From IMG/VR virus record IMGVR_UViG_3300005541_000010, positions 825-64,824 of that record: 64,000 nucleotides of DNA, one strand, 5' to 3'. Source of the DNA: a virus. Lineage: Duplodnaviria > Caudoviricetes. The notes beneath the pieces are model-generated. The model worked only from the letters and a program-made list of their open reading frames with translations. It did not search any database and had not been told where the DNA came from. This document shows positions 3,312 through 15,775 of this stretch, one piece after another. The translations under genes and the position numbers were made by a program. Positions within the stretch are counted from its first letter, which is position 1, and every line of letters starts with the position of its first letter.

Positions 3312-3932
3312 ATGAGAGGCGTTAAAACCAACATCCTTCCGGGAACAAAATTTGGGTTACTGACAGTAATCGGTGGTCCGATATTTCTCGATCATCGAGC
3401 GCATTACGAATGCAAGTGTGATTGTGGGGGCCGCAAACAACCTCGAAGTGACGCCCTCCTAGATGGCAGCGCGCAGTCTTGCGGGTGTTCGCGTGTAGAC
3501 CACGGAGCATGGCGTGGCGGACACCGAACGCCGGAATACACAGCGTGGTCCTCTATGGTGTCTCGCTGCACTAATCCAGCAAACAAACGCTACGCTCAAT
3601 ACGGTGGCCGTGGCATACAAGTTTGCGCTAGATGGCGCCTGTTCCGAAATTTCCTAATTGATCTTGGGGAGCGTCCGAGCAACAAACATTCCCTCGATCG
3701 GATCGACAATGATCGTGGCTATGAGATTGGGAATTGCAGATGGGCGACGCCGCAAGAACAGCAAGGGAACAAGCGCACCACCACTAAAGTGACCATTTGC
3801 GGGGTTACCTTGCATGTAGCCGCGTGGGCCAGAAGAATCGGTATATCGGACGCTGGTTTTTGCTACCGCCTGAAATCCCGCTGGCCTGAAGAAGCGCTGC
3901 TCAGACCTTCCAACAGGGGGAACCGGCCATGA
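3312..3932 (+). CDS. HNH-type homing endonuclease-like protein
   Basis: CKCDCG...SCGC, EYTAWSSMVSRC, YGGRGIQVC, LDRIDNDRGYEIGNCRWAT motifs; more AT-rich than neighbours. Confidence 0.8.
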   Translation: MRGVKTNILPGTKFGLLTVIGGPIFLDHRAHYECKCDCGGRKQPRSDALLDGSAQSCGCSRVDHGAWRGGHRTPEYTAWSSMVSRCTNPANKRYAQYGGRGIQVCARWRLFRNFLIDLGERPSNKHSLDRIDNDRGYEIGNCRWATPQEQQGNKRTTTKVTICGVTLHVAAWARRIGISDAGFCYRLKSRWPEEALLRPSNRGNRP

Positions 3933-4432
3933 AAAAACTACTTTTATGGGCGCGTGGCATTGTGGGAAATTCCCCGACCGTCACGGCGCTCATCGTCATC
4001 TTCATCATCGTCCTGTGCGTCGTGCTGTGGCGACCCGTGCATGCGGCGGAACTCGACCTGCGCCTGGGTGCGTCGCTGAAGTCCGGGGACTCGGGACCCG
4101 TCCTGGGACTGAACGCGCTGTTCCCACAGGGACAGTTCGACCTGTACACCGGCACGCTCCTGTGGGGCACCACCGCGACGACCCCGAACAACTGGTCGTG
4201 GGAGGCCGGCATCCACGGCTGTCGCTGGCATCTGTGCGCCGCCCTGGGTGGCGCGTACCTGCAACGCATCGACCGCTTCAACGGCTCGCACACGAACTTC
4301 AACATCGAGCTGTCGTACCTGTTCGGCGAAGGGCGTATCCGGTCGCTGGACCTCACGCACCTGAGCAACGCCGGCACGGTCGCGCCGAATCCGGGCCGGA
4401 ATGCGGCCCTGTTGAACATCCGCCTGCAGTAG
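3929..4432 (+). CDS. PagL-like lipid A 3-O-deacylase / acyloxyacyl hydrolase beta-barrel
   Basis: Signal peptide ending VHA-A, alternating beta-strand pattern, C-terminal HLSNAG..PNPG.N catalytic motif. Confidence 0.7.
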   Translation: MKKLLLWARGIVGNSPTVTALIVIFIIVLCVVLWRPVHAAELDLRLGASLKSGDSGPVLGLNALFPQGQFDLYTGTLLWGTTATTPNNWSWEAGIHGCRWHLCAALGGAYLQRIDRFNGSHTNFNIELSYLFGEGRIRSLDLTHLSNAGTVAPNPGRNAALLNIRLQ

Positions 4433-4441
4433 GTTTATACT
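4412..4441 (+). promoter_or_regulatory. Sigma70-like promoter for the tRNA array transcript
   Basis: TTGAAC (4412-4417), N18, TATACT (4436-4441). Confidence 0.5.
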
Positions 4442-4444
4442 CGC

Positions 4445-4699
4445 AGCCGTCATGAGGACCATCAGAAATACTGATACCTGCGCCGCGACACGGCTATATA
4501 GCCCGTCGTGGTTGCACTCGTTCGTCGGGCAATCAAAGCCCGGTACGCGCGAACAGTTCTGATCCAGCTTGCCCCTCGGCGCAGGCCGGGGGAAGCCCAA
4601 GCAAAGACCTCTCCCGCCCAAAGACCGAGCGCACCCGAAGACCCGGCGCATGGAGCCGGTGAGGCGTAAAGCGAAACACGAAGCCGAATGGCTTTTCGA
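4445..4699 (+). ncRNA. Structured non-coding leader of the tRNA array (unclassified)
   Basis: No credible ORF. Hairpins AGCCGT/ACGGCT, ATCAG/CTGAT, 4567-4596, CCGGC/GCCGG. Segments complementary to the 3' flank of the array. Confidence 0.45.
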
Positions 4700-4770
4700 G
4701 CAGGTGCCGCCGTGGGGCGTAACGGCCTTCCAAGCCGGCATTGCGAGTTCGACTCTCGTCGCCTGCTCCA
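4700..4770 (+). tRNA. tRNA-Gly(TCC), compact D arm
   Basis: GCAGGTG/CGCCTGC, loop CTTCCAA, TTCGA T loop, U73-CCA. Confidence 0.85.
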
Positions 4771-4794
4771 ATTTCTTTCTGTAATCTGTGCGCT

Positions 4795-5139
4795 ATGGTT
4801 ACTAAGGCTGGCGGCAGCCAACATAAGGTTAACGGAGAGACGCATTACTGTCGTAATCAAACACGGTATGTTCTATACGTTCGAAATAGAATCAAGCGTC
4901 TTGAGGCGCTGATAAGGGAATTCAAAAATCGACCGTGTTTCGACTGCGGCAATCCGTTTCCGTTTTACGTCATGCAGCTAGATCATGCCCGTGGCGTGAA
5001 ATTGTGTAATCCATCACGACTGGCTAGGTTAGGCTGGTCTATAGCAAGAATTCAGGCAGAGTTAGAAAAGTGCGATGCGGTGTGTGCGAATTGTCACGCC
5101 ATTCGCACTTACAAGCGCAGACAGAATATTCCGGTCTAG
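4795..5139 (+). CDS. HNH endonuclease inside the tRNA array
   Basis: CFDCG...LDH...CDAVCANCHAIRT; last codons and stop overlap tRNA-Asn. Confidence 0.85.
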   Translation: MVTKAGGSQHKVNGETHYCRNQTRYVLYVRNRIKRLEALIREFKNRPCFDCGNPFPFYVMQLDHARGVKLCNPSRLARLGWSIARIQAELEKCDAVCANCHAIRTYKRRQNIPV

Positions 5140-5207
5140 CACTCATGGCGAGCGCGCTCCGCTGTTAACGGAGAATGAGAGTGGTTCGATCCCACTGGCC
5201 GGAGCCA
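5130..5207 (+). tRNA. tRNA-Asn(GTT)
   Basis: TCCGGTC/GGCCGGA, CTCCG-CTGTTAA-CGGAG, G73-CCA. Confidence 0.9.
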
Positions 5208-5213
5208 AATCCA

Positions 5214-5286
5214 GGTTCCACACCGGGAGGTGGAGTAGCACTGTCGATGCTGCGAGCGCGGGGTTCGAGTCCCCGTGGAACCGCCA
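5214..5286 (+). tRNA. tRNA-Asp(GTC), no acceptor-D connector
   Basis: GGTTCCA/TGGAACC, loop CTGTCGA, G73-CCA. Confidence 0.85.
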
Positions 5287-5292
5287 TTCAAT

Positions 5293-5369
5293 CCCCGCTT
5301 AGCTCAGACGTTAAGAGCGCCGCTCCTACAAAGCGGAAGTCGCAGGCAATCAATCTGCAGTGGGGACCA
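5293..5369 (+). tRNA. tRNA-Val(TAC)-like, C33 and degenerate T loop
   Basis: CCCCGCT/AGTGGGG, CCGCT-CCTACAA-AGCGG, T loop CAATCAA, A73-CCA. Confidence 0.65.
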
Positions 5370-5370
5370 T

Positions 5371-5457
5371 CTAGTGTTAGCCAGCTATGGAGGCTGAGCA
5401 GACTGTAAACCTGCTGTCCTTGCGGCCCGTTGGGTTCGATTCCCAAGCACTGGACCA
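5371..5457 (+). tRNA. tRNA-Tyr(GTA)
   Basis: Loop CTGTAAA, long variable arm, TTCGA, A73-CCA. Confidence 0.88.
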
Positions 5458-5461
5458 ATTT

Positions 5462-5536
5462 ACCCCCATAACTTATGCAGTAGAGCCTCGCCTCTTAAGC
5501 GATGGGAACCAGGTGCAAATCCTGGTGGGGGTACCA
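5462..5536 (+). tRNA. tRNA-Lys(CTT)
   Basis: ACCCCCA/TGGGGGT, loop CTCTTAA, CCA. Confidence 0.9.
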
Positions 5537-5613
5537 CACCGTGAAGTTGCCGGCATACGCGGCCAGCGAATGCGAGCCGGACGAGTCGTTGGCGTAACCA
5601 ACCTAACATTTCG

Positions 5614-5685
5614 GGGCGGCGTACTGGGGTACAGGGATGCTTTGCAAGCAACCCGCGTGGAGTTCGATCCTCCGGCTGTCCACCA
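5614..5685 (+). tRNA. tRNA-Ala(TGC), no acceptor-D connector
   Basis: GGGCGGC/GCTGTCC with G3:U70, loop TTTGCAA, A73-CCA. Confidence 0.85.
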
Positions 5686-5689
5686 ACAC

Positions 5690-5766
5690 GATCGTGAATG
5701 CAAAGCGGCGGAGCAGCACGGCTCTCAACCGTGGCCTATCGGGTTCAACTCCCGACACGATCACCA
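5690..5766 (+). tRNA. tRNA-Glu(CTC)
   Basis: GATCGTG/CACGATC, CACGG-CTCTCAA-CCGTG, CCA. Confidence 0.88.
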
Positions 5767-5847
5767 GTTCCCGCGCGATAGGCCGGCAGGCTGCTATGCG
5801 CGCCCCGCTGCCGCGGAAGGCATGAATTAACATGCGGGATAAAATGC

Positions 5848-5923
5848 GATGCCGGTGTAGCCGGACGAACGCCGCGCCTTTCAAGCGTTGGTACTACGGG
5901 TTCGAGTCCCGTCGGCATCTCCA
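5848..5923 (+). tRNA. tRNA-Glu(TTC)
   Basis: GATGCCG/CGGCATC, loop CTTTCAA, TTCGA, CCA. Confidence 0.85.
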
Positions 5924-5924
5924 T

Positions 5925-6010
5925 CCCCTCGTGGTGGAATTTAGCAGACACAGTTGGCTCAGAACCAACCGTCGCGAGGCGTGCGGGTGCAAGTCCTGCC
6001 GAGGGGACCA
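5925..6010 (+). tRNA. tRNA-Leu(CAG)
   Basis: CCCCTCG/CGAGGGG, GTTGG-CTCAGAA-CCAAC, long variable arm. Confidence 0.92.
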
Positions 6011-6016
6011 ATTTTT

Positions 6017-6091
6017 GTGGGCGAAGGCGAAGTAGATAGCCCGCGCGCCGTGACCGCGCTGTAGGTGCTGCAAATGCACCCGCTCACCCCA
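6017..6091 (+). tRNA. tRNA-His(GTG), C33, no encoded G-1
   Basis: GTGGGCG/CGCTCAC, loop CCGTGAC, C73-CCA. Confidence 0.8.
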
Positions 6092-6095
6092 ACAT

Positions 6096-6169
6096 CACGA
6101 CGTGGCCGAGAGGCGAGGCGGACGGTTGCAACCCGTTCCACGCTGGTTCAACTCCAGTCGTCGTGTCCA
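6096..6169 (+). tRNA. tRNA-Cys(GCA)
   Basis: CACGACG/CGTCGTG, loop TTGCAAC, U73-CCA. Confidence 0.9.
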
Positions 6170-6174
6170 AATAT

Positions 6175-6249
6175 CTGAGTGTGGGATAGCGGCTGTCCAC
6201 CTGCCTTGGGAGCAGGTCCAGGCACGTTCGACTCGTGTCACTCAGACCA
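6175..6249 (+). tRNA. tRNA-Pro(TGG)
   Basis: CTGAGTG/CACTCAG, CCTGC-CTTGGGA-GCAGG. Confidence 0.9.
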
Positions 6250-6253
6250 CTTT

Positions 6254-6331
6254 CGGGATGTAAGTCAGCCTGGTTAGACACCCCGGCCCGGAACCGGGAA
6301 GCCGCAGGTTCAAATCCTGCCGTCCCGACCA
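6254..6331 (+). tRNA. tRNA-Pro(CGG), C33
   Basis: CGGGATG/CGTCCCG, CCCGG-CCCGGAA-CCGGG. Confidence 0.88.
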
Positions 6332-6337
6332 AACAAT

Positions 6338-6411
6338 GCCTCCATCGTCCAATGGCAGCACGGCTGCCTGATTAGCGGCTAATCTACGTTCAAGTCGTAG
6401 TGGAGGTACCA
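6338..6411 (+). tRNA. tRNA-Ile(GAT), U37
   Basis: GCCTCCA/TGGAGGT, GCTGC-CTGATTA-GCGGC, A73-CCA. Confidence 0.78.
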
Positions 6412-6415
6412 ACAC

Positions 6416-6488
6416 GCGGGCGTACTCAGGGCAGTACGCTACCTTGCCAAGGTAGATGGCTGGGATTCGAGTTCCCTCGCCCGCTCCA
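6416..6488 (+). tRNA. tRNA-Gly(GCC), no acceptor-D connector
   Basis: GCGGGCG/CGCCCGC, CTACC-TTGCCAA-GGTAG, U73-CCA. Confidence 0.88.
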
Positions 6489-6492
6489 ATGC

Positions 6493-6563
6493 GCCTTCGC
6501 CGATCGGACGGTAGCGGTCTTCTAAGCCGCCGACTGCAGGTTCGACTCCTGCCGAGGGCGTCA
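6493..6563 (+). tRNA. tRNA-Arg(TCT), compact, ends TCA instead of CCA
   Basis: GCCTTCG/CGAGGGC, loop CTTCTAA, GCAGG-TTCGACT-CCTGC. Confidence 0.82.
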
Positions 6564-6565
6564 CT

Positions 6566-6638
6566 ACCCACGCCGATAGGAACGGCGGTCGCCTCCTAAG
6601 CGGCCATCTTGTCGGTTCGAGTCCGACCGTGGGTGCCA
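6566..6638 (+). tRNA. tRNA-Arg(CCT), compact
   Basis: ACCCACG/CGTGGGT, loop CTCCTAA, G73-CCA. Confidence 0.86.
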
Positions 6639-6642
6639 TTTC

Positions 6643-6721
6643 GCTCCGGTAGCACAACTTGGCAGATGCGCGCCTCTCAAAAGGGTTGATGTTGTGGGTT
6701 CGAATCCCACCCGGAGTACCA
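6643..6721 (+). tRNA. tRNA-Leu(CAA) without long variable arm
   Basis: GCTCCGG/CCGGAGT, loop CTCAAAA, weak anticodon stem, 6-nt variable region. Confidence 0.75.
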
Positions 6722-6722
6722 T

Positions 6723-6808
6723 ACGCCTGTGGTGAAACTGGTAGACGCGCGTGGACTGAGAATCCCGTGCCTTCGGGCGTGTCGGTTCAAATCCGGCCAG
6801 GCGTACCA
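6723..6808 (+). tRNA. tRNA-Leu(GAG)
   Basis: ACGCCTG/CAGGCGT, loop CTGAGAA, variable arm GCC-TTCG-GGC. Confidence 0.9.
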
Positions 6809-6812
6809 ATTC

Positions 6813-6888
6813 GTGGGGAGAGCTAGTGTGGTCATAGCTCCGGTCTGAAAAGCCGGCTAACTTGGTTCGATCCCAAGTCCTCACACCA
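6813..6888 (+). tRNA. tRNA-Phe(GAA)
   Basis: GTGGGGA/TCCTCAC, CCGGT-CTGAAAA-GCCGG. Confidence 0.9.
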
Positions 6889-6893
6889 TTTGC

Positions 6894-6968
6894 AGCGGGT
6901 TAGTTCAGTAGCAGAACAGGGGTCTCATAAGCCTCACGTCACAGGTGCAATTCCTGTACCCGCTACCA
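6894..6968 (+). tRNA. tRNA with CAT anticodon (Met or Ile2)
   Basis: AGCGGGT/ACCCGCT, loop CTCATAA; paired 1:72, so not a typical initiator. Confidence 0.88.
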
Positions 6969-6974
6969 TTTTCC

Positions 6975-7069
6975 TGTAGTCAGCTCCGGCGAGCGGCGCG
7001 GCCTTATAAGCTGCGGAGACCTGGCGGACCGCTGGGAACGGCTGGGCTCGACACCCAGGACTACAATCA
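6975..7069 (+). tRNA. tRNA with TAT anticodon (Ile) and long variable arm
   Basis: TGTAGTC/GACTACA, GCGGC-CTTATAA-GCTGC, about 27-nt extra arm, CTGGG-CTCGACA-CCCAG, ends ATCA. Confidence 0.72.
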
Positions 7070-7073
7070 ACAT

Positions 7074-7149
7074 GGCCATGGCCCGAGGGACTTCGGGCAC
7101 GACGCTACGAACGTCGCTGGCGTAGGTTCGACTCCTACCATGGTCGCCA
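7074..7149 (+). tRNA. tRNA-Arg(ACG)
   Basis: GGCCATG/CATGGTC, 6-bp D stem directly after the acceptor, CGACG-CTACGAA-CGTCG. Confidence 0.88.
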
Positions 7150-7154
7150 ATTCT

Positions 7155-7227
7155 CTCCTCGCCGACGGACTCGGCATGAGCCCTCCGAAGGCTCGTTGCG
7201 TTGGTTCGAATCCAACCGTGGAGGCCA
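7155..7227 (+). tRNA. tRNA-Arg(CCG), compact
   Basis: CTCCTCG/CGTGGAG, GAGCC-CTCCGAA-GGCTC, G73-CCA. Confidence 0.85.
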
Positions 7228-7228
7228 C

Positions 7229-7304
7229 GCCGTTGTAGCACGTCAGGACGTGCAGCTCCTTGGTAAGGAGACGGGAGCTGGTTCGACCCCAGCCTACGGC
7301 ACCA
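7229..7304 (+). tRNA. tRNA-Thr(GGT)
   Basis: GCCGTTG/CTACGGC, loop TTGGTAA, CCA. Confidence 0.88.
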
Positions 7305-7309
7305 TTTTC

Positions 7310-7386
7310 GCCTACCAAGCATAGACAGCGATGTGCGCGGCCTGTATCCGCGCGATGCCGGGTGCAAGTCCACGGGGTAGGCTCCA
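7310..7386 (+). tRNA. tRNA-Thr(TGT), C33
   Basis: GCCTACC/GGTAGGC, GCGCGG-CCTGTAT-CCGCGC, bulged T stem. Confidence 0.8.
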
Positions 7387-7390
7387 ATTT

Positions 7391-7466
7391 GCCCTTCAAG
7401 CTCTGACAGCGGAGCGCCGGATTCGTACCCCGGAGGCGGCTGGTGCAATTCCAGCGTGGGGCTCCA
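7391..7466 (+). tRNA. tRNA-Thr(CGT)
   Basis: GCCCTTC/GTGGGGC, loop TTCGTAC, U73-CCA. Confidence 0.85.
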
Positions 7467-7473
7467 CTTTCTC

Positions 7474-7550
7474 CCCTCCATAACTCAACCTGGCTAGAGC
7501 TCCGCCTTTTAAGCGGTAGGGTCGAGGTTCGATGCCTCGTGGAGGGACCA
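7474..7550 (+). tRNA. tRNA-Lys(TTT)
   Basis: CCCTCCA/TGGAGGG, loop CTTTTAA. Confidence 0.92.
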
Positions 7551-7554
7551 TCTT

Positions 7555-7643
7555 GGAGAGTTAACCGAGCGGGCGCTCGGGCTGGTTTGCTAAACCAAGG
7601 GCATCCTCACGGGTGTGTGAATCGTGCTCACAGCTCTCCGCCA
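7555..7643 (+). tRNA. tRNA-Ser(GCT), 8/4 fold
   Basis: GGAGAGTT/AGCTCTCC, GTGA/TCAC T stem, loop TTGCTAA, G73-CCA. Confidence 0.85.
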
Positions 7644-7648
7644 AACCT

Positions 7649-7738
7649 GGACGATGAAGCGCGCAGGCGCGCGCCGCCGGCTTGAACCCGGCTGGTACCG
7701 GCAGCGGTATGTGGATCGAGACCGACCGTCGTCCGCCA
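7649..7738 (+). tRNA. tRNA-Ser(TGA), 8/4 fold
   Basis: GGACGATG/CGTCGTCC, 6-bp D stem, GCCGG-CTTGAAC-CCGGC, long variable arm. Confidence 0.85.
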
Positions 7739-7745
7739 ATTCAAT

Positions 7746-7835
7746 GGAAGGTGAAGCAGACAAGCGCGCTGCGCCTGCCTCGAAAACAGGTCGTGTCCTC
7801 ACGGGCATGTGACGCAAGTTCACCGCCTTCCGCCA
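7746..7835 (+). tRNA. tRNA-Ser(CGA), 8/4 fold
   Basis: GGAAGGTG/CGCCTTCC, loop CTCGAAA, GTGA-CGCAAGT-TCAC. Confidence 0.85.
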
Positions 7836-7840
7836 TCTTT

Positions 7841-7931
7841 GGACGATAAACCGGACAGGCGCGCCGGGAGCGGTTGGAAGCCGTATCGTGTCACGACGTG
7901 GCATCTGCATCGTCTGCAGTGTCGTCCGCCA
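7841..7931 (+). tRNA. tRNA-Ser(GGA), 8/4 fold
   Basis: GGACGATA/TGTCGTCC, loop TTGGAAG, CTGC-ATCGTCT-GCAG. Confidence 0.82.
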
Positions 7932-7936
7932 ATTTC

Positions 7937-8006
7937 GGCCGGTGCTCCGGGAGCAAGGTGAACTCCAAATCCACCGAGCAAGTTTCGACTACTTGACTGG
8001 CCGCCA
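7937..8006 (+). tRNA. tRNA-Trp(CCA), 70-nt compact fold
   Basis: GGCCGGT/ACTGGCC, GCTC-CGG-GAGC, 6-bp anticodon stem, loop CTCCAAA, 3-nt variable loop, G73-CCA. Confidence 0.82.
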
Positions 8007-8007
8007 T

Positions 8008-8083
8008 TCAGGTGTGGGTTGCCGGAATCCCCTCGTGGCTCTGAACCACGACCACGCACGTTCGACTCGTGCCGCCTGATCCA
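8008..8083 (+). tRNA. tRNA-Gln(CTG)
   Basis: TCAGGTG/CGCCTGA, CGTGG-CTCTGAA-CCACG. Confidence 0.88.
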
Positions 8084-8088
8084 CTTTC

Positions 8089-8164
8089 ACACGAGCGGGT
8101 TGCTGGTATCCCAACTGCGCTTTGAACGCAGTTCACGCTGGTTCGATCCCAGCCTCGTGTTCCA
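8089..8164 (+). tRNA. tRNA-Gln(TTG)
   Basis: ACACGAG/CTCGTGT, AACTGCG-CTTTGAA-CGCAGTT. Confidence 0.86.
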
Positions 8165-8330
8165 CTCAGCCATTCGGCTTTTCGGGAGGCTTCGGCGCCC
8201 CGAGTTTCAGGGCGGCTTTGTTACGACGTGGCTCTGCAATACGGTTCGAGCGCTTTGCACGCCAGTTGCCCCACTCTGCTTTCGGGCCACGCGCAACACC
8301 TTTAAGGAGGAGGATTAAGCAGGTCGCTCG
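8165..8330 (+). ncRNA. Structured trailer of the tRNA array (unclassified)
   Basis: 8168-8180 is the exact reverse complement of 4681-4693; further complementary blocks and local hairpins; lies in the convergence zone with the leftward operon. Confidence 0.4.
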
Positions 8331-8342
8331 GCGATTTACGTG

Positions 8343-8540
8343 TCATGGTTCTTTCCTCGCGCTCGGCATCACGCCCTGCGGCTGATGGGTGAGGTGCCAC
8401 TCCCTGCACCACGGGCACTTGTATACCCGCAACTTCTCCTGGACGTGGCCAGCCTTCATTATGCGCGCCGCCATCATCTTGGCGATCGCCTTGGTGCGAT
8501 AGGGACGCTTCTTCTGCGGCCCGCAGCGTGTGACTTTCAT
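8343..8540 (-). CDS. Small basic protein with YxCxxCxxWHLT motif
   Basis: VYKCPWCREWHLTH; last gene of the leftward operon. Confidence 0.65.
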   Translation of the reverse strand: MKVTRCGPQKKRPYRTKAIAKMMAARIMKAGHVQEKLRVYKCPWCREWHLTHQPQGVMPSARKEP

Positions 8541-8546
8541 GCTGCC

Positions 8547-8711
8547 TTACCATATGCCGTCTTTAATCTCAGCCGCCGTGCGCTTGCCGCGACGTGGCGT
8601 GTGCGCCTGGACGTGAACCCGCAGGCGTGCGGCGCCGCGGTCCAGCACCGCGGCCAGCCACAACAGCCGATCGCGGTAGCCCTTGGGATAAGGCCGCTTG
8701 CGGACGATCAT
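8547..8711 (-). CDS. 54-aa hypothetical protein
   Basis: MIVRKRPYPKGYRDRLLWLAAVLDRG...; ATGA coupling to the upstream gene. Confidence 0.5.
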   Translation of the reverse strand: MIVRKRPYPKGYRDRLLWLAAVLDRGAARLRVHVQAHTPRRGKRTAAEIKDGIW

Positions 8712-8959
8712 GTGCCGCTCGCCAAAAGCCGCTGCTGGTCATTGATGACTTCGGCCGTCAGGTCGCGCGCGACCGCCTTGGTCGCCTCCACGATACCGTC
8801 CGCCACTATGGCCAGCACCTTCTTGGCGGTCTCCTCGTTCAGGTACAGGACGATTTCGCTGTGGTCGTCGCCTCGGAACTTGATCTTGCCGACGAGCGGC
8901 TTCGCGGCGTCGAAAAAGTAGTCCGAGCCGCGGTTGATGTGTATGTATTCCAGGATCAT
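8708..8959 (-). CDS. 83-aa hypothetical protein
   Basis: AGGAG SD then MILEYIHINRGSDYFF; high GC3. Confidence 0.6.
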   Translation of the reverse strand: MILEYIHINRGSDYFFDAAKPLVGKIKFRGDDHSEIVLYLNEETAKKVLAIVADGIVEATKAVARDLTAEVINDQQRLLASGT

Positions 8960-8969
8960 GCAATTCTCC

Positions 8970-9251
8970 TCACCATTGGACCAGTAAATCCTGCACCAGC
9001 GCGGCGATCGTGCGGAACACGCCGTGCGCGAACGCGAGCTGCGTCTCAGGGTCTTTGTGCGTGTCCACCCAAGCGTGGCACGCGGAACAACACCAGGCGG
9101 CAATCAGGTCCGGGGACTTCATCCCCATGCCACTGATGCCGATAACACGGAAATGCGCCAGCACTACGGTCTCGGGGTTGTGGTTGCAGATATTCGGAAG
9201 GCGCACCTGGCACATCTGCCCCTTGGCGTATTTGCGTAGGTTCATGTCCAC
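8970..9251 (-). CDS. DUF1364 (YbcO-like) nuclease-domain protein
   Basis: AKGQMCQVRLPNICNHNPETVVLAH...GMGMKSPDLIAAWCCSACH. Confidence 0.9.
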   Translation of the reverse strand: MDMNLRKYAKGQMCQVRLPNICNHNPETVVLAHFRVIGISGMGMKSPDLIAAWCCSACHAWVDTHKDPETQLAFAHGVFRTIAALVQDLLVQW

Positions 9252-9427
9252 GGTGTCCTGAGAGCCGCCAAGACTTCTTCTTTCACGACCTCTCTCACGA
9301 TGCGCCGGATCGTCTCGGCGGTGACGTGGCTATCGCACCAGTGGGCTTTGCGCTGCTCCGGTGGCAGTTCTCGAAACTCCTCATCGCTCGGAACCGGCTT
9401 GCCGCAATTCGGGCAATCGTAGCTCAT
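9242..9427 (-). CDS. Small CxxC protein
   Basis: MSYDCPNCGKP; coupled overlaps with neighbours. Confidence 0.5.
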   Translation of the reverse strand: MSYDCPNCGKPVPSDEEFRELPPEQRKAHWCDSHVTAETIRRIVREVVKEEVLAALRTPWT

Positions 9428-9909
9428 GCGACATGCTTCCAAGTTTTGCGATTCAGGATGGCATGGATGGCTTGCCGCGAGACGCCGTACCGATCTGCGA
9501 GAACCGGAGGCGATGATTCTGATGCACGGATAACAGGGATGTCGGTTGCCTCGAGCCGCGCGTGTCGGTTCCTCTCTCCAATCGGCGGATTAGATCGGCC
9601 GCGCGCCGCCTTGTCGCGCATGTTGTCAGTGTGCGTGCCGGCATAAAGATGGTTTGGATTAACGCAGCGTGGATTGTCACAGGTATGGCAAAGGCTCATG
9701 CCTGCGGGGATCGGTCCTCGGGTCAATTCCCATGCCCACCGGTGAGCCAATTGCGTTCCGCTGCGAGCGGCTCCGAATAGACCGTAGCCGAACTTGTTAA
9801 CGGCTCCCCGCCAGAACCAGCAAAAGTCTGTGCGCCGAACGGCGGCCCAAAACAATCGACTCCTGCGCTCCGGTATGGTGAACACTGTCTTAATTCCCGT
9901 AATGCTCAT
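9424..9909 (-). CDS. HNH endonuclease with C-terminal HTH
   Basis: CWFWRG...GYG...AHRWAWE...CHTCDNPRCVNPNHL..GT..DN. Confidence 0.9.
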   Translation of the reverse strand: MSITGIKTVFTIPERRSRLFWAAVRRTDFCWFWRGAVNKFGYGLFGAARSGTQLAHRWAWELTRGPIPAGMSLCHTCDNPRCVNPNHLYAGTHTDNMRDKAARGRSNPPIGERNRHARLEATDIPVIRASESSPPVLADRYGVSRQAIHAILNRKTWKHVA

Positions 9910-10327
9910 CGGCGTATTTTGCAACCTCGGCCTCCAATTCGCCCAAGTCCATGTCGTGGAGCAGGTGCGCACACACCGTCATCATCGAGGAAATGACGCG
10001 CCCAAAGGCCACGTCGTCAGGGATGGAGTCGTAGGAAAGCGAGCCCGCTTCTTCGCGGATGACTCCATCAAGATCCGGGTAGCTCGTGGTGTAGCCCGAA
10101 GCAAACGCGATGGCCTTGCGAAAGGTGGTGAAGTCCGTATAGCGCTCCTGGTTGTCGTAGGTGAGCTGCAGGAGTGCCATTGCCAGCTTGTGATGCTGGT
10201 AGCTGCGCGGCTTCACGACGTCGGCACGATATACCTCGCCGAGCTTGTACTTGCGGGCGATCTCGGCACTCGGCTCGTCGGCCGGCTCAAAGCCGCCGAG
10301 GGTCTTCTTCAGATACAGGCGAGCCAT
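9890..10327 (-). CDS. DUF1367-family protein
   Basis: LYLKKTLGGFEPAD...KLGEVYRADVVKPRSYQHH...SLSYDS pattern. Confidence 0.75.
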   Translation of the reverse strand: MARLYLKKTLGGFEPADEPSAEIARKYKLGEVYRADVVKPRSYQHHKLAMALLQLTYDNQERYTDFTTFRKAIAFASGYTTSYPDLDGVIREEAGSLSYDSIPDDVAFGRVISSMMTVCAHLLHDMDLGELEAEVAKYADEHYGN

Positions 10328-10945: not shown

Positions 10946-11682
10946 CGCTGCCTGTCCCGTGCGCGGGCGCGCACTTCCTTGCACACGTAGTCGAAGTTTT
11001 TGGCCAGAATCTGGCTCAGGTCCTTGACCTTGGCCCACTTCTTGAACTGACCCACGTCAGCGTTCGTTTCCGTCAGGAGCGCCAGCAGATCCGCCGCCTG
11101 GGTCTCGGTCAGGGTCGGCAGCGTGGTGTTGCCGTCATTGTCATCCTCACCGATCGCCACGTTGAATATGCCTTTGAGCAGGTAGCGCATCGCGTAGGTC
11201 ATGGCCGCGCCCGCCGCGTGGGTGAGCGTCATCACGTTGCCGCCTTTGGCGCCCTTGCCGTCCGCCGGCAGTTCCTTGCTGTAGATCCGGGTGTGTCCGC
11301 CCTGGTGCGAGACGTGGCACAGCACATGGACGTTCCCAGGCGTGACCGGGGGCGCCTCATCGAAGGACAGCGCGAAGCCGTGCTTGACGTAGATCGGGCG
11401 CAACACCTTGTCGAGCTTGCCGTACGTCGCGTACTTGCTGTGCGTGTCGGGGTTGGTTGCGTCGGTGGAGATACGAGTCATTTCCGACTGCGCGCGCGTC
11501 ATCGCGGCGTTGAAGTCGGCCTCGGCATTGCGGGCCAGGATGCGCTCCTGCATCCCTAAGAGCTTGTCGAGCTTGGATACATCGCAATTTGGATCGGTCG
11601 CAAGTCTCTCAATCATCGCTATCGTTTGGCTGGCTGGATCAGCCGGCTTTGTAACAGCGACTTCGGTTTTTTCTGTATTCAC
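10942..11682 (-). CDS. erf: ERF-family single-strand annealing protein
   Basis: NPDTHSKYATY...PIYVKHGFALSF...HQGGH...GAAMTYAMRY.L..IFNV..GEDDNDG. Confidence 0.85.
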   Translation of the reverse strand: MNTEKTEVAVTKPADPASQTIAMIERLATDPNCDVSKLDKLLGMQERILARNAEADFNAAMTRAQSEMTRISTDATNPDTHSKYATYGKLDKVLRPIYVKHGFALSFDEAPPVTPGNVHVLCHVSHQGGHTRIYSKELPADGKGAKGGNVMTLTHAAGAAMTYAMRYLLKGIFNVAIGEDDNDGNTTLPTLTETQAADLLALLTETNADVGQFKKWAKVKDLSQILAKNFDYVCKEVRARARDRQR

Positions 11683-12167
11683 GATCTTACCTCTGGATTG
11701 AACGTGTGTAGGCGCCGCTTCGCGGCGCAATAAGCTGCGTGCGCTTCTTGCGGAGTGTGAAAATATCCAATGTAAATCTGTCGGCCGTTTAGCCGAATGG
11801 CTGCTTGCCAGCCTGCACCATGTCGATAGGCACCTAGCGGTTCCTCTTTCCCACTGTTGCGGCGACGATTTTGCATGTTTTGGGCTTGGGTGCAGGCTCG
11901 CAGATTCGCCCATGCGTTGTTGGCTCGATCGCCGTCTATGTGATCTACCGCCTTCGGCGGAAACGCGCCTGTCTGCATCGCCCAAATAATCCGATGAGCG
12001 GCGTGCAGTTTGCGGCCTATGACCCGTACATAAATCGCGCCGCTTCCACTGAGTGCTCCGGCGACTGAGCCGACAGGCGCGTTCGGCCGTGCGATCTTGC
12101 GGATAAGGTGCCCGGTCACTCGATCGTAGAAGAACAGTTCGCGCGCCCGCGTGATGACAGGGTTCAT
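11679..12167 (-). CDS. HNH endonuclease with AP2 domain
   Basis: YDRVTG...AHRIIWAM...VDHIDGDRANNAWANLR...WQAAI...IGYFHTPQEAHAAY. Confidence 0.9.
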   Translation of the reverse strand: MNPVITRARELFFYDRVTGHLIRKIARPNAPVGSVAGALSGSGAIYVRVIGRKLHAAHRIIWAMQTGAFPPKAVDHIDGDRANNAWANLRACTQAQNMQNRRRNSGKEEPLGAYRHGAGWQAAIRLNGRQIYIGYFHTPQEAHAAYCAAKRRLHTFNPEVRS

Positions 12168-12697
12168 CACTTGCTCCTCAAGGATTTCATGTAGGCATCG
12201 GACCACGAGCGGGCGTCGGGACGCCGCGCTTCCGGGTGAAAGACTTCGCTGTGGAACCGGCGCAGGTACTTAGCCTTGCGGTTGCGCTTGCGCCAGTTCA
12301 GGAAGGCGACCAGCAGGCGGTCAACGGCGCGCATTGTGGCCGTACTCTGATTCGGAGCGTTGGAACGCGGCCTCGGCTTCCGCTTCTTCTTCAACCTCGG
12401 CAGTGTAGTCATCCTCGCCATACTCGTCCGGGTCCGGTCCGAAGTGCGGGTCGTTGTCCGTCACGCCTGGCGGTAAGTTGCCTGGGCCGCTCATGGCAGG
12501 CGCTCCTTGAGCGTGGTGCGGTGAGCAAGCACCGCTGCGGCGTGCAGCGCATCGTGTTCTGCCTGGTGCGGCGCGCACATGCCTAGCTTGCCCTCGTCAG
12601 CCTTGTACGGCGAGACGTAGCTGCGGCCGTCGTGCCGGCAGCCGCATGGTTCGTTGATGACGAGCGCGCCGCGGTGGGTATAGACCGCGCGGCTCAC
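12167..12697 (-). CDS. Three short coupled hypothetical ORFs (12167-12334, 12321-12494, 12491-12697)
   Basis: Head-to-tail overlaps typical of phage early operons; one is strongly acidic, one has CGC/H residues. Confidence 0.45.
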
Positions 12698-15451: not shown

Positions 15452-15775
15452 ATGCACATCCTACGCAATCACTCCCTCGTCATGAAGGTTTTCAGAAACC
15501 GCCTGCGCCGCATGTCCCAAAGCGACGCGGCGCGCAAGTCCGGCGCCTCGGTGCAGAAGGTCAGTGATGTGGTGAACGGACGCTGCCCACCAGGTGGGAA
15601 GTTGCTGTGGTGGCTGGGATTTGAGGTGGCGTACGTGCCGCGACGCAAAAGAGCCCGGCGCCTGACGGCCTATCAGGCACCGGATTCCGCCGGCATTGGC
15701 CCACAAGGTGTACCGGACTTGGGCCGACATGGTAATGTCACGGAGCAATCACGTCAATCACCCGTGACGGAGTGA
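15452..15775 (+). CDS. Cro-like HTH regulator
   Basis: MSQSDAARKSGASVQKVSDVVNGRCPPG HTH; ATG only 8 nt after the -10 box. Confidence 0.7.
   Translation: MHILRNHSLVMKVFRNRLRRMSQSDAARKSGASVQKVSDVVNGRCPPGGKLLWWLGFEVAYVPRRKRARRLTAYQAPDSAGIGPQGVPDLGRHGNVTEQSRQSPVTE

Follow-up and report, generated by a model that had tools for sequence, protein, structure and literature searches.

The precursors of bacterial and archaeal 16S and 23S rRNA carry complementary segments just outside the mature RNAs, kilobases apart, that form the leader-trailer helices known as RNase III stalks and are predicted to close the whole long precursor into a loop (PMC11404451, PMC10250234). The polycistronic tRNA operons of Escherichia coli, which are processed by RNase E and RNase P, are compact multi-tRNA transcripts with AU-rich spacers, in which no end-to-end pairing is needed and ordinary terminators are used and later removed (PMC7049720). 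A third arrangement, that of intrinsic terminators and moron-type insulated phage modules, places a stem-loop and a U run before and after an accessory module at a convergent junction. In the tRNA cluster of phage T4, RNase III cuts upstream of the first tRNA. Phages commonly carry large tRNA arrays, and little work has addressed how the untranslated transcripts of these arrays, which span several kilobases, are delimited, terminated, and cut. Here, we analyzed a phage genome from a soil metagenome assembly (IMG/VR record IMGVR_UViG_3300005541_000010), the studied stretch of which (64,000 nt; hereafter the window) contains a tRNA operon bracketed by two short elements that are complementary to each other. 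Tentatively, we favor the reading, drawn from the sequence and from folding models, that these are RNA boundary elements that clamp or define the ends of the operon's precursor; no description of such a leader-trailer clamp was found for bacterial or phage tRNA operons.

Two complementary elements lie at the edges of the tRNA operon

The upstream arm, AAGCCGAATGGCT (4681-4693), is the exact reverse complement of the downstream arm, AGCCATTCGGCTT (8168-8180). The former ends 6 nt ahead of the first tRNA, and the latter begins 3 nt past the last CCA. An initial annotation of the locus had reported both the inverted pair and its spacings, which we confirm, and had proposed that each copy also folds as a small hairpin with loops GAAT and ATTC, which is likewise borne out by folding in context. 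The copies can be aligned in direct orientation as well, following the pattern (CAC)..AGCC-[GAAT/ATTC]-GGCTTTTCG, and their sole difference is then the 4 loop bases, which are mutually reverse-complementary. A U-rich bulge is likewise present in each copy, together with a short second stem, the sequence of which differs between the two (CG/CG vs CUC/GGG). The element is nearly palindromic, and its copies are therefore complementary to each other. The simplest history suggested by this anatomy would be that of a single palindromic stem-loop that occurs twice and has its loop inverted in one copy; without such an inversion, plain duplication of a hairpin would not account for the complementary loops. 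Loop inversion is a common type of mutation in hairpins, for example in plastid DNA.

We consider it quite unlikely that the pair is a coincidence, i.e. a functionless 13-nt inverted match at the two edges. When 2000 size-matched pairs of native fragments were taken from the window, only 6 had a complementary block of at least 13 nt, and both arms lie within 6 nt of the operon boundaries, which contributes an estimated extra factor of ~1e-3. Further, the copies share their tail in direct orientation, and the motif AGCC-N4-GGCTTTT occurs exactly twice in the 64-kb window, both times at an array edge. On the side of coincidence, an estimated ~0.1-0.2 inverted repeats of 13 nt are expected per 4-kb region (perfect inverted repeats of 12 and 11 nt also turned up within the array), the feature was selected post hoc, and it is absent from ten other phage arrays (see below).

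Above-background pairing between the flanks is confined to the two arms

The initial annotation had placed the arms within a roughly 400-nt structured RNA made up of both flanks. When the joined flanks were co-folded, as had been suggested as a check, the gain from pairing was -25.6 kcal/mol, a value reached by 0/150 and 2/150 native controls (mean gain, -11 to -12 kcal/mol; S.D., 5). With the 13-nt arms removed, the gain was -15.1 kcal/mol, which is inside the control range; thus the arms stand above the controls and everything else in the co-fold is at background. All four blocks described as pairing in nested order are present where they had been located, but the gain left without the arms does not exceed that of the controls, and the nested 6-7-nt blocks therefore contribute no signal. 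The flanks had also been described as free of open reading frames (ORFs) and rich in hairpins. Neither contains a convincing ORF, but neither is unusually structured: the dinucleotide-shuffle z-scores were -1.42 for the leader and +0.18 for the trailer, and neither flank folds better than its shuffles. We searched all Rfam 15 families with cmscan (E ≤ 1 over 3500-9500; gathering score over the whole window), a library that presumably includes GOLLD, ROOL, RNase P RNA, tmRNA, and introns. Apart from one match to asX2 (E 0.29), no family matched either flank at E ≤ 1, and the matches within the array were of tRNA type only. It is thus very improbable that the two flanks are a ~400-nt structured noncoding RNA, GOLLD/ROOL-like or of a new class, that remains after tRNA excision. 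Both flanks are indeed devoid of convincing ORFs, and many inter-flank pairs appear in the co-fold, but the inter-flank gain without the arms equals that of random native pairs, and the shuffle and Rfam results above count against such an RNA. Further, neither 215 fetched loci nor exact-motif scans of IMG/VR and metagenome collections yielded a homologue of either flank, and the segment enclosed by the flanks holds a protein gene. This gene, which encodes an HNH endonuclease (4795-5139), also means that the loop is not the 3.5-kb tRNA array alone, as had been assumed.

The helix between leader and trailer consists of 13 Watson-Crick pairs and one G-U pair, i.e. 14 bp. The duplex between the copies has a computed energy of -24.8 kcal/mol, compared with -7.0 kcal/mol for each local hairpin, and when the array was replaced by a linker or treated as a second strand, the 13 pairs formed at a probability of 0.88-1.0 and the local stems at 0. 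We conclude that the leader-trailer helix is statistically real and, in the folding model with the tRNAs folded out, thermodynamically dominant.

Mutual complementarity at the edges is peculiar to this array

We next sought relatives of the operon. When 50,697 phage records were searched by megablast and blastn with the array and its two flanks, scattered tRNA matches alone were obtained, and exact-pattern scans with the edge motifs and the 3' half of the last tRNA found nothing in viral and metagenome collections, IMG/VR included. Overall, phages, IMG/VR, JGI metagenomes, a 5.8-billion-protein set, and the SRA yielded no homologous array. Several candidates were rejected: the one match from the exact-pattern scans, in locus L044, is due to chance and lies within coding sequence, the 13 matches of a 19-mer of the 3' copy in bacterial genomes are all unrelated, and Stenotrophomonas phage StenR_269 has scattered tRNAs only and is no architectural relative. 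The closest cultured phages are the Caulobacter phages RW, RLK, KcrB, and GB2A (terminase 44% identical), of which RW has no tRNA array; the closest IMG/VR contigs by terminase are 43% identical. Judged by these comparisons, the phage appears to be effectively a singleton in current collections. Among relatives of its exonuclease (L002-L040), an array is present in L028 only and is non-homologous. No array accompanies the relatives of its PagL-like gene at 85, 74, and 68% identity, and none was found with 80 YbcO relatives from metagenomes. Because contigs that share the PagL-like gene (68-85% identity) and the YbcO-like gene (71%) do so without the array, the latter is, on this comparison, an accessory module.

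As a substitute for homologues, we compared the 40-nt flanks of ten non-homologous phage arrays, namely that of L028 and those of nine loci linked to the array by relatives of its HNH gene. The duplex energy of the flanks was -39.1 kcal/mol in the window and -7 to -25 kcal/mol in the ten other arrays, which indicates a specific property rather than an effect of composition. A hairpin lies just ahead of the first tRNA in L213, L203, L156, and L146, and several arrays end in ordinary terminators; that of L028 has a canonical terminator at its end and no flank complementarity. Among the arrays compared, hairpins at the edges are thus common, and their mutual complementarity appears to be peculiar to the phage studied here.

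Proposed role of the edge elements in the operon transcript

We infer that one transcript carries both flanks and that the duplex is formed and has a role in vivo. In the proposed mechanism, two copies of AGCC-N4-GGCU followed by UUUCG would mark both edges of a single transcription unit of tRNAs and HNH gene. At first, each copy would form a weak local hairpin; after transcription of the 3' copy, the two would exchange into the 14-bp leader-trailer helix, which would close the whole operon into one loop and place the first 5' end beside the last 3' end. Such a clamp could be an entry site for a double-strand-specific host nuclease, could shield both ends against exonucleases, or could provide a strong stem ahead of a UUUU run where no canonical terminator exists. 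No RNase III gene was found in the complete genome, and cleavage by this enzyme would therefore need that of the host. Our cautious preference for a clamp comes from the thermodynamics, from the exact positions at the edges, and from the missing terminator: the terminator scan called no canonical terminator after the tRNA array, and elsewhere the phage uses strong canonical ones, at 15650(-) and 38418(-)/38445(+), with energies of -17 to -26 kcal/mol. The 6- and 3-nt spacings also match the lengths of leader and trailer that remain on E. coli pre-tRNAs after RNase E cleavage (PMC7049720). A more specific version, which is possible but doubtful, is a split terminator. Here the arms would pair across 3.5 kb and make one closed precursor of ~35 tRNAs and the HNH mRNA, and the long-range stem, which would abut the UUUU run and thereby stand in for the missing terminator hairpin, would fire only on transcripts that retain their own leader; it might also serve as a nuclease entry site.

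Described systems resemble this arrangement in part. Like the pre-rRNA helices, the arms are complementary on the same strand just outside the RNAs they flank (13 exact nt and one G-U) and are predicted to close the precursor into a loop. The window, however, encloses tRNAs and an HNH mRNA rather than rRNA, its leader has no boxA-like antitermination element, and each of its arms is self-complementary. Further, an rRNA-type stalk is an extended helix of about two turns, with at least 17 bp for 16S function and ~20 bp for efficient RNase III cleavage, whereas the helix described here has 14 contiguous pairs. Because it falls short of this length (PMC11404451), we describe the edge helix as possibly working like an rRNA leader-trailer helix and not as a member of that family. 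Of the processing stalk suggested by the initial annotation there remains one short helix, statistically real but shorter than its rRNA counterparts. Compared with intrinsic terminators and the stem-loops around moron-type modules, the stems of the window are weaker (4-6 bp, 4 U), and both are the same element with the loop inverted. An intrinsic terminator has a stable GC-rich stem and a U tract of at least 5-7, and neither edge site was called as one.

Several observations weigh against a clamp. No relatives were found, and the pairing is seen in a single sequence; in the ten non-homologous arrays, the longest complementary block within 40 nt of the edges is 4-7 nt. A helix of 13-14 bp is short for an RNase III stalk or rRNA-type helix, given that E. 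coli 16S needs at least 17 bp (PMC11404451). The 3' arm is made ~3.5 kb after the leader, which RNase P or RNase E may have severed by then; in wild-type E. coli, polycistronic tRNA transcripts of full length are not observed (PMC7049720). A pure long-range helix would also leave the self-complementarity of the arms and the shared direct TTTCG tail unexplained. Finally, when the 3857-nt precursor is folded without constraints, its minimum free energy (MFE) structure contains the local 5' hairpin and not the long-range helix, although this MFE says little because the tRNA sequences are mispaired with each other.

Nearly as likely as a clamp, and likewise only a possible account, is that the copies act separately in the transcript as local hairpins. 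Located where the leader ends, the upstream copy would then serve as an attenuator or insulator, and the downstream copy as a 3'-end-forming or protective stem-loop; alternatively, both would be recognition sites for one nuclease beside the UUUUCG cleavage stretch. Their complementarity would be a by-product of the duplication of a palindromic hairpin and the later inversion of one loop. This agrees with the direct-repeat anatomy, in which AGCC...GGCTTTTCG is common to both copies and the loop bases alone differ, with other phage arrays, in which a hairpin often precedes the first tRNA and a hairpin or terminator follows the last without the two being mutually complementary, and with the rapid processing of pre-tRNA in E. 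coli, which speaks against a long-lived full-length precursor (PMC7049720). The local stems are, however, weak, at 4-6 bp, -7 kcal/mol, and 4 U only, when compared with the phage's own terminators, and the terminator scan calls neither site. Equilibrium folding gives them zero probability when both copies are present, and the occurrence of exactly two copies, at the operon edges only, is left unexplained. If the edge elements do pair, the leader-trailer principle, so far one of rRNA, would be extended to a tRNA operon and would offer a simple engineered handle for tRNA-array expression; if they act only locally, they would amount to two ordinary hairpins at the operon boundaries, with an odd history. 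In both cases, the present evidence is one sequence.

The edge motif as a possible site on DNA

The 12-mer AGCCGAATGGCT has three exact copies in the genome, compared with 0.03 expected, and there is a one-mismatch copy at 1975-1986, near the start of a membrane-protein ORF. In a DNA-level reading, the motif would be a 12-bp dyad-symmetric site in double-stranded DNA, where its orientation does not matter. A protein of the phage or its host could bind it as an operator or insulator, or it could be a recombination scar or substrate from the arrival of the module at the convergent junction. The number of copies, including the imperfect one, would suit this reading, as would the accessory nature of the array, which is absent from the relatives that share PagL and YbcO, and the crowding of homing-type HNH genes in the region. 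We nevertheless regard a DNA-level element as unlikely. The third copy and the one-mismatch copy lie within coding sequence, no target-site duplication adjoins the arms, the complete genome has no match to a resolvase (PF00239) or tyrosine recombinase (PF00589), and the half-sites measure 4-5 bp, which is short for a recombinase. Further, in the contigs of the source run, to which this comparison is confined, no inversion or excision joints or variants were seen at the arms.

Two specific forms of mobile or switching DNA were also rejected. An invertible segment of the Hin/Gin or tyrosine-recombinase type is not indicated, there being no recombinase and no strand-changing joints in the contigs. 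A cassette bounded by terminal inverted repeats, like an insertion sequence or a miniature inverted-repeat transposable element, would agree with the 13-bp inverted repeats, but the bases outside them (…CACG / TTCG…) show no direct duplication; no transposase was seen among the ORFs examined. No evidence was found that the 13-mer is a cleavage site of the HNH endonuclease.

Layout and genomic setting of the operon

The features of the locus are collected in Table 1.

Table 1. Features of the tRNA operon and its surroundings (window positions, except for the first row)
Feature	Position	Strand	Remarks
Stretch studied (the window)	bases 825-64824 of 64,824-bp virus record		Phage, soil metagenome assembly
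PagL-like gene (lipid A deacylase)	3929-4432	+	Closes lysis block; Pfam PF09411 PagL, E 2.1e-08
Sigma-70-like promoter match, TTGAAC-18-TATACT (predicted)	4412-4441	+	9/12 consensus positions; overlaps stop codon of PagL-like gene
Untranslated leader upstream of 5' boundary element	4445-4679	+	Not unusually structured; without homologue
5' boundary stem-loop	4679-4698	+	Core AAGCC-GAAT-GGCTT, tail TTTCG; arm 4681-4693; local hairpin -7.0 kcal/mol
First tRNA of operon	4700-4771	+	Rfam RF00005, 30.6 bits (cut-off 29)
HNH endonuclease gene (114 aa)	4795-5139	+	phrog_3106, E 3.7e-22
Main body of tRNA array	5130-8164	+	Rfam and ARAGORN calls
3' boundary stem-loop	8165-8186	+	Core AGCC-ATTC-GGCT, tail TTTCGGG; arm 8168-8180; local hairpin -7.0 kcal/mol
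Second trailer hairpin, C(UUCG)G tetraloop, then AGUUUC	8183-8204	+	From fold of 3' flank
Last ORF of convergent minus-strand block	8302-8553	-	Overlapping ORF chain 9103-8708, 8711-8547, 8553-8302; AT skew
Third exact copy of AGCCGAATGGCT	11791-11802	.	Inside HNH_3 gene 11679-12206 (-)

The promoter that had been annotated just upstream of the leader is indeed present as a sigma-70-like sequence, which is predicted from its consensus match only. The acceptor stem of the first tRNA is 7 bp long, its CCA is encoded, and its anticodon loop is of the Gly(UCC) type; relaxed ARAGORN calls this tRNA Gly tcc. The CCA end of the last tRNA is at 8164. The called tRNAs encode CCA, and two of the relaxed ARAGORN calls are ambiguous. 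Spacers between neighboring called tRNAs are 1-7 nt long and AU-rich, as in the E. coli operons, and some gaps between calls measure 77-105 nt.

The 358-nt gap after the first tRNA contains the HNH gene, the stop codon of which overlaps the start of tRNA-Asn and the GC content of which (0.46-0.49) is set against ~0.60 in its surroundings. Among the IMG/VR relatives of this gene, 18 of 80 loci lie in tRNA-rich regions (at least three tRNAs within 8 kb), where their identity to it is 33-56%, and 9 of these 18 hold 22-36 tRNAs (L137, L140, L143, L146, L156, L171, L172, L203, and L213). The operon HNH thus looks like a member of an endonuclease family associated with phage tRNA arrays. In being set among tRNA genes it resembles SegB, a free-standing homing endonuclease of the T4 tRNA cluster, and the tRNA region of T5 reportedly has HNH enzymes as well; these likenesses concern the cargo of the operon, not the repeats that bracket it. 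We also note that the 9 kb around the array contain four genes for HNH-type endonucleases (3312-3932, 4795-5139, 9424-9972, and 11679-12206), an unusually high density of homing-type genes.

The virus record is complete according to CheckV (100%), and the GC content of the window is ~0.6-0.67. Of the sequencing runs searched for the stretch, the probable source soil run alone contains it, and no RNA run was listed as containing it. The array is placed at a convergent junction, with the lysis block on one side and a minus-strand block on the other. The last ORF of the latter (8302-8553) is the outer limit of the trailer and had no family match in profile searches. The 137-nt gap at 8165-8301 lies without a canonical terminator for either the plus-strand tRNA operon or the minus-strand block, and antisense read-through into the tRNA array seems possible. 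In the leader, AAGACC is repeated three times at 18-19-nt spacing (4602-4643), which we estimate to be at chance level. The leader of the unrelated array of L028 (17440-17640, minus strand) contains the similar words CAAAGAC and CAAGACC; we rejected it as a homologue of the window leader, the alignment not being significant. The PagL-like gene has ~50 metagenomic relatives, many of them on phage-like contigs.

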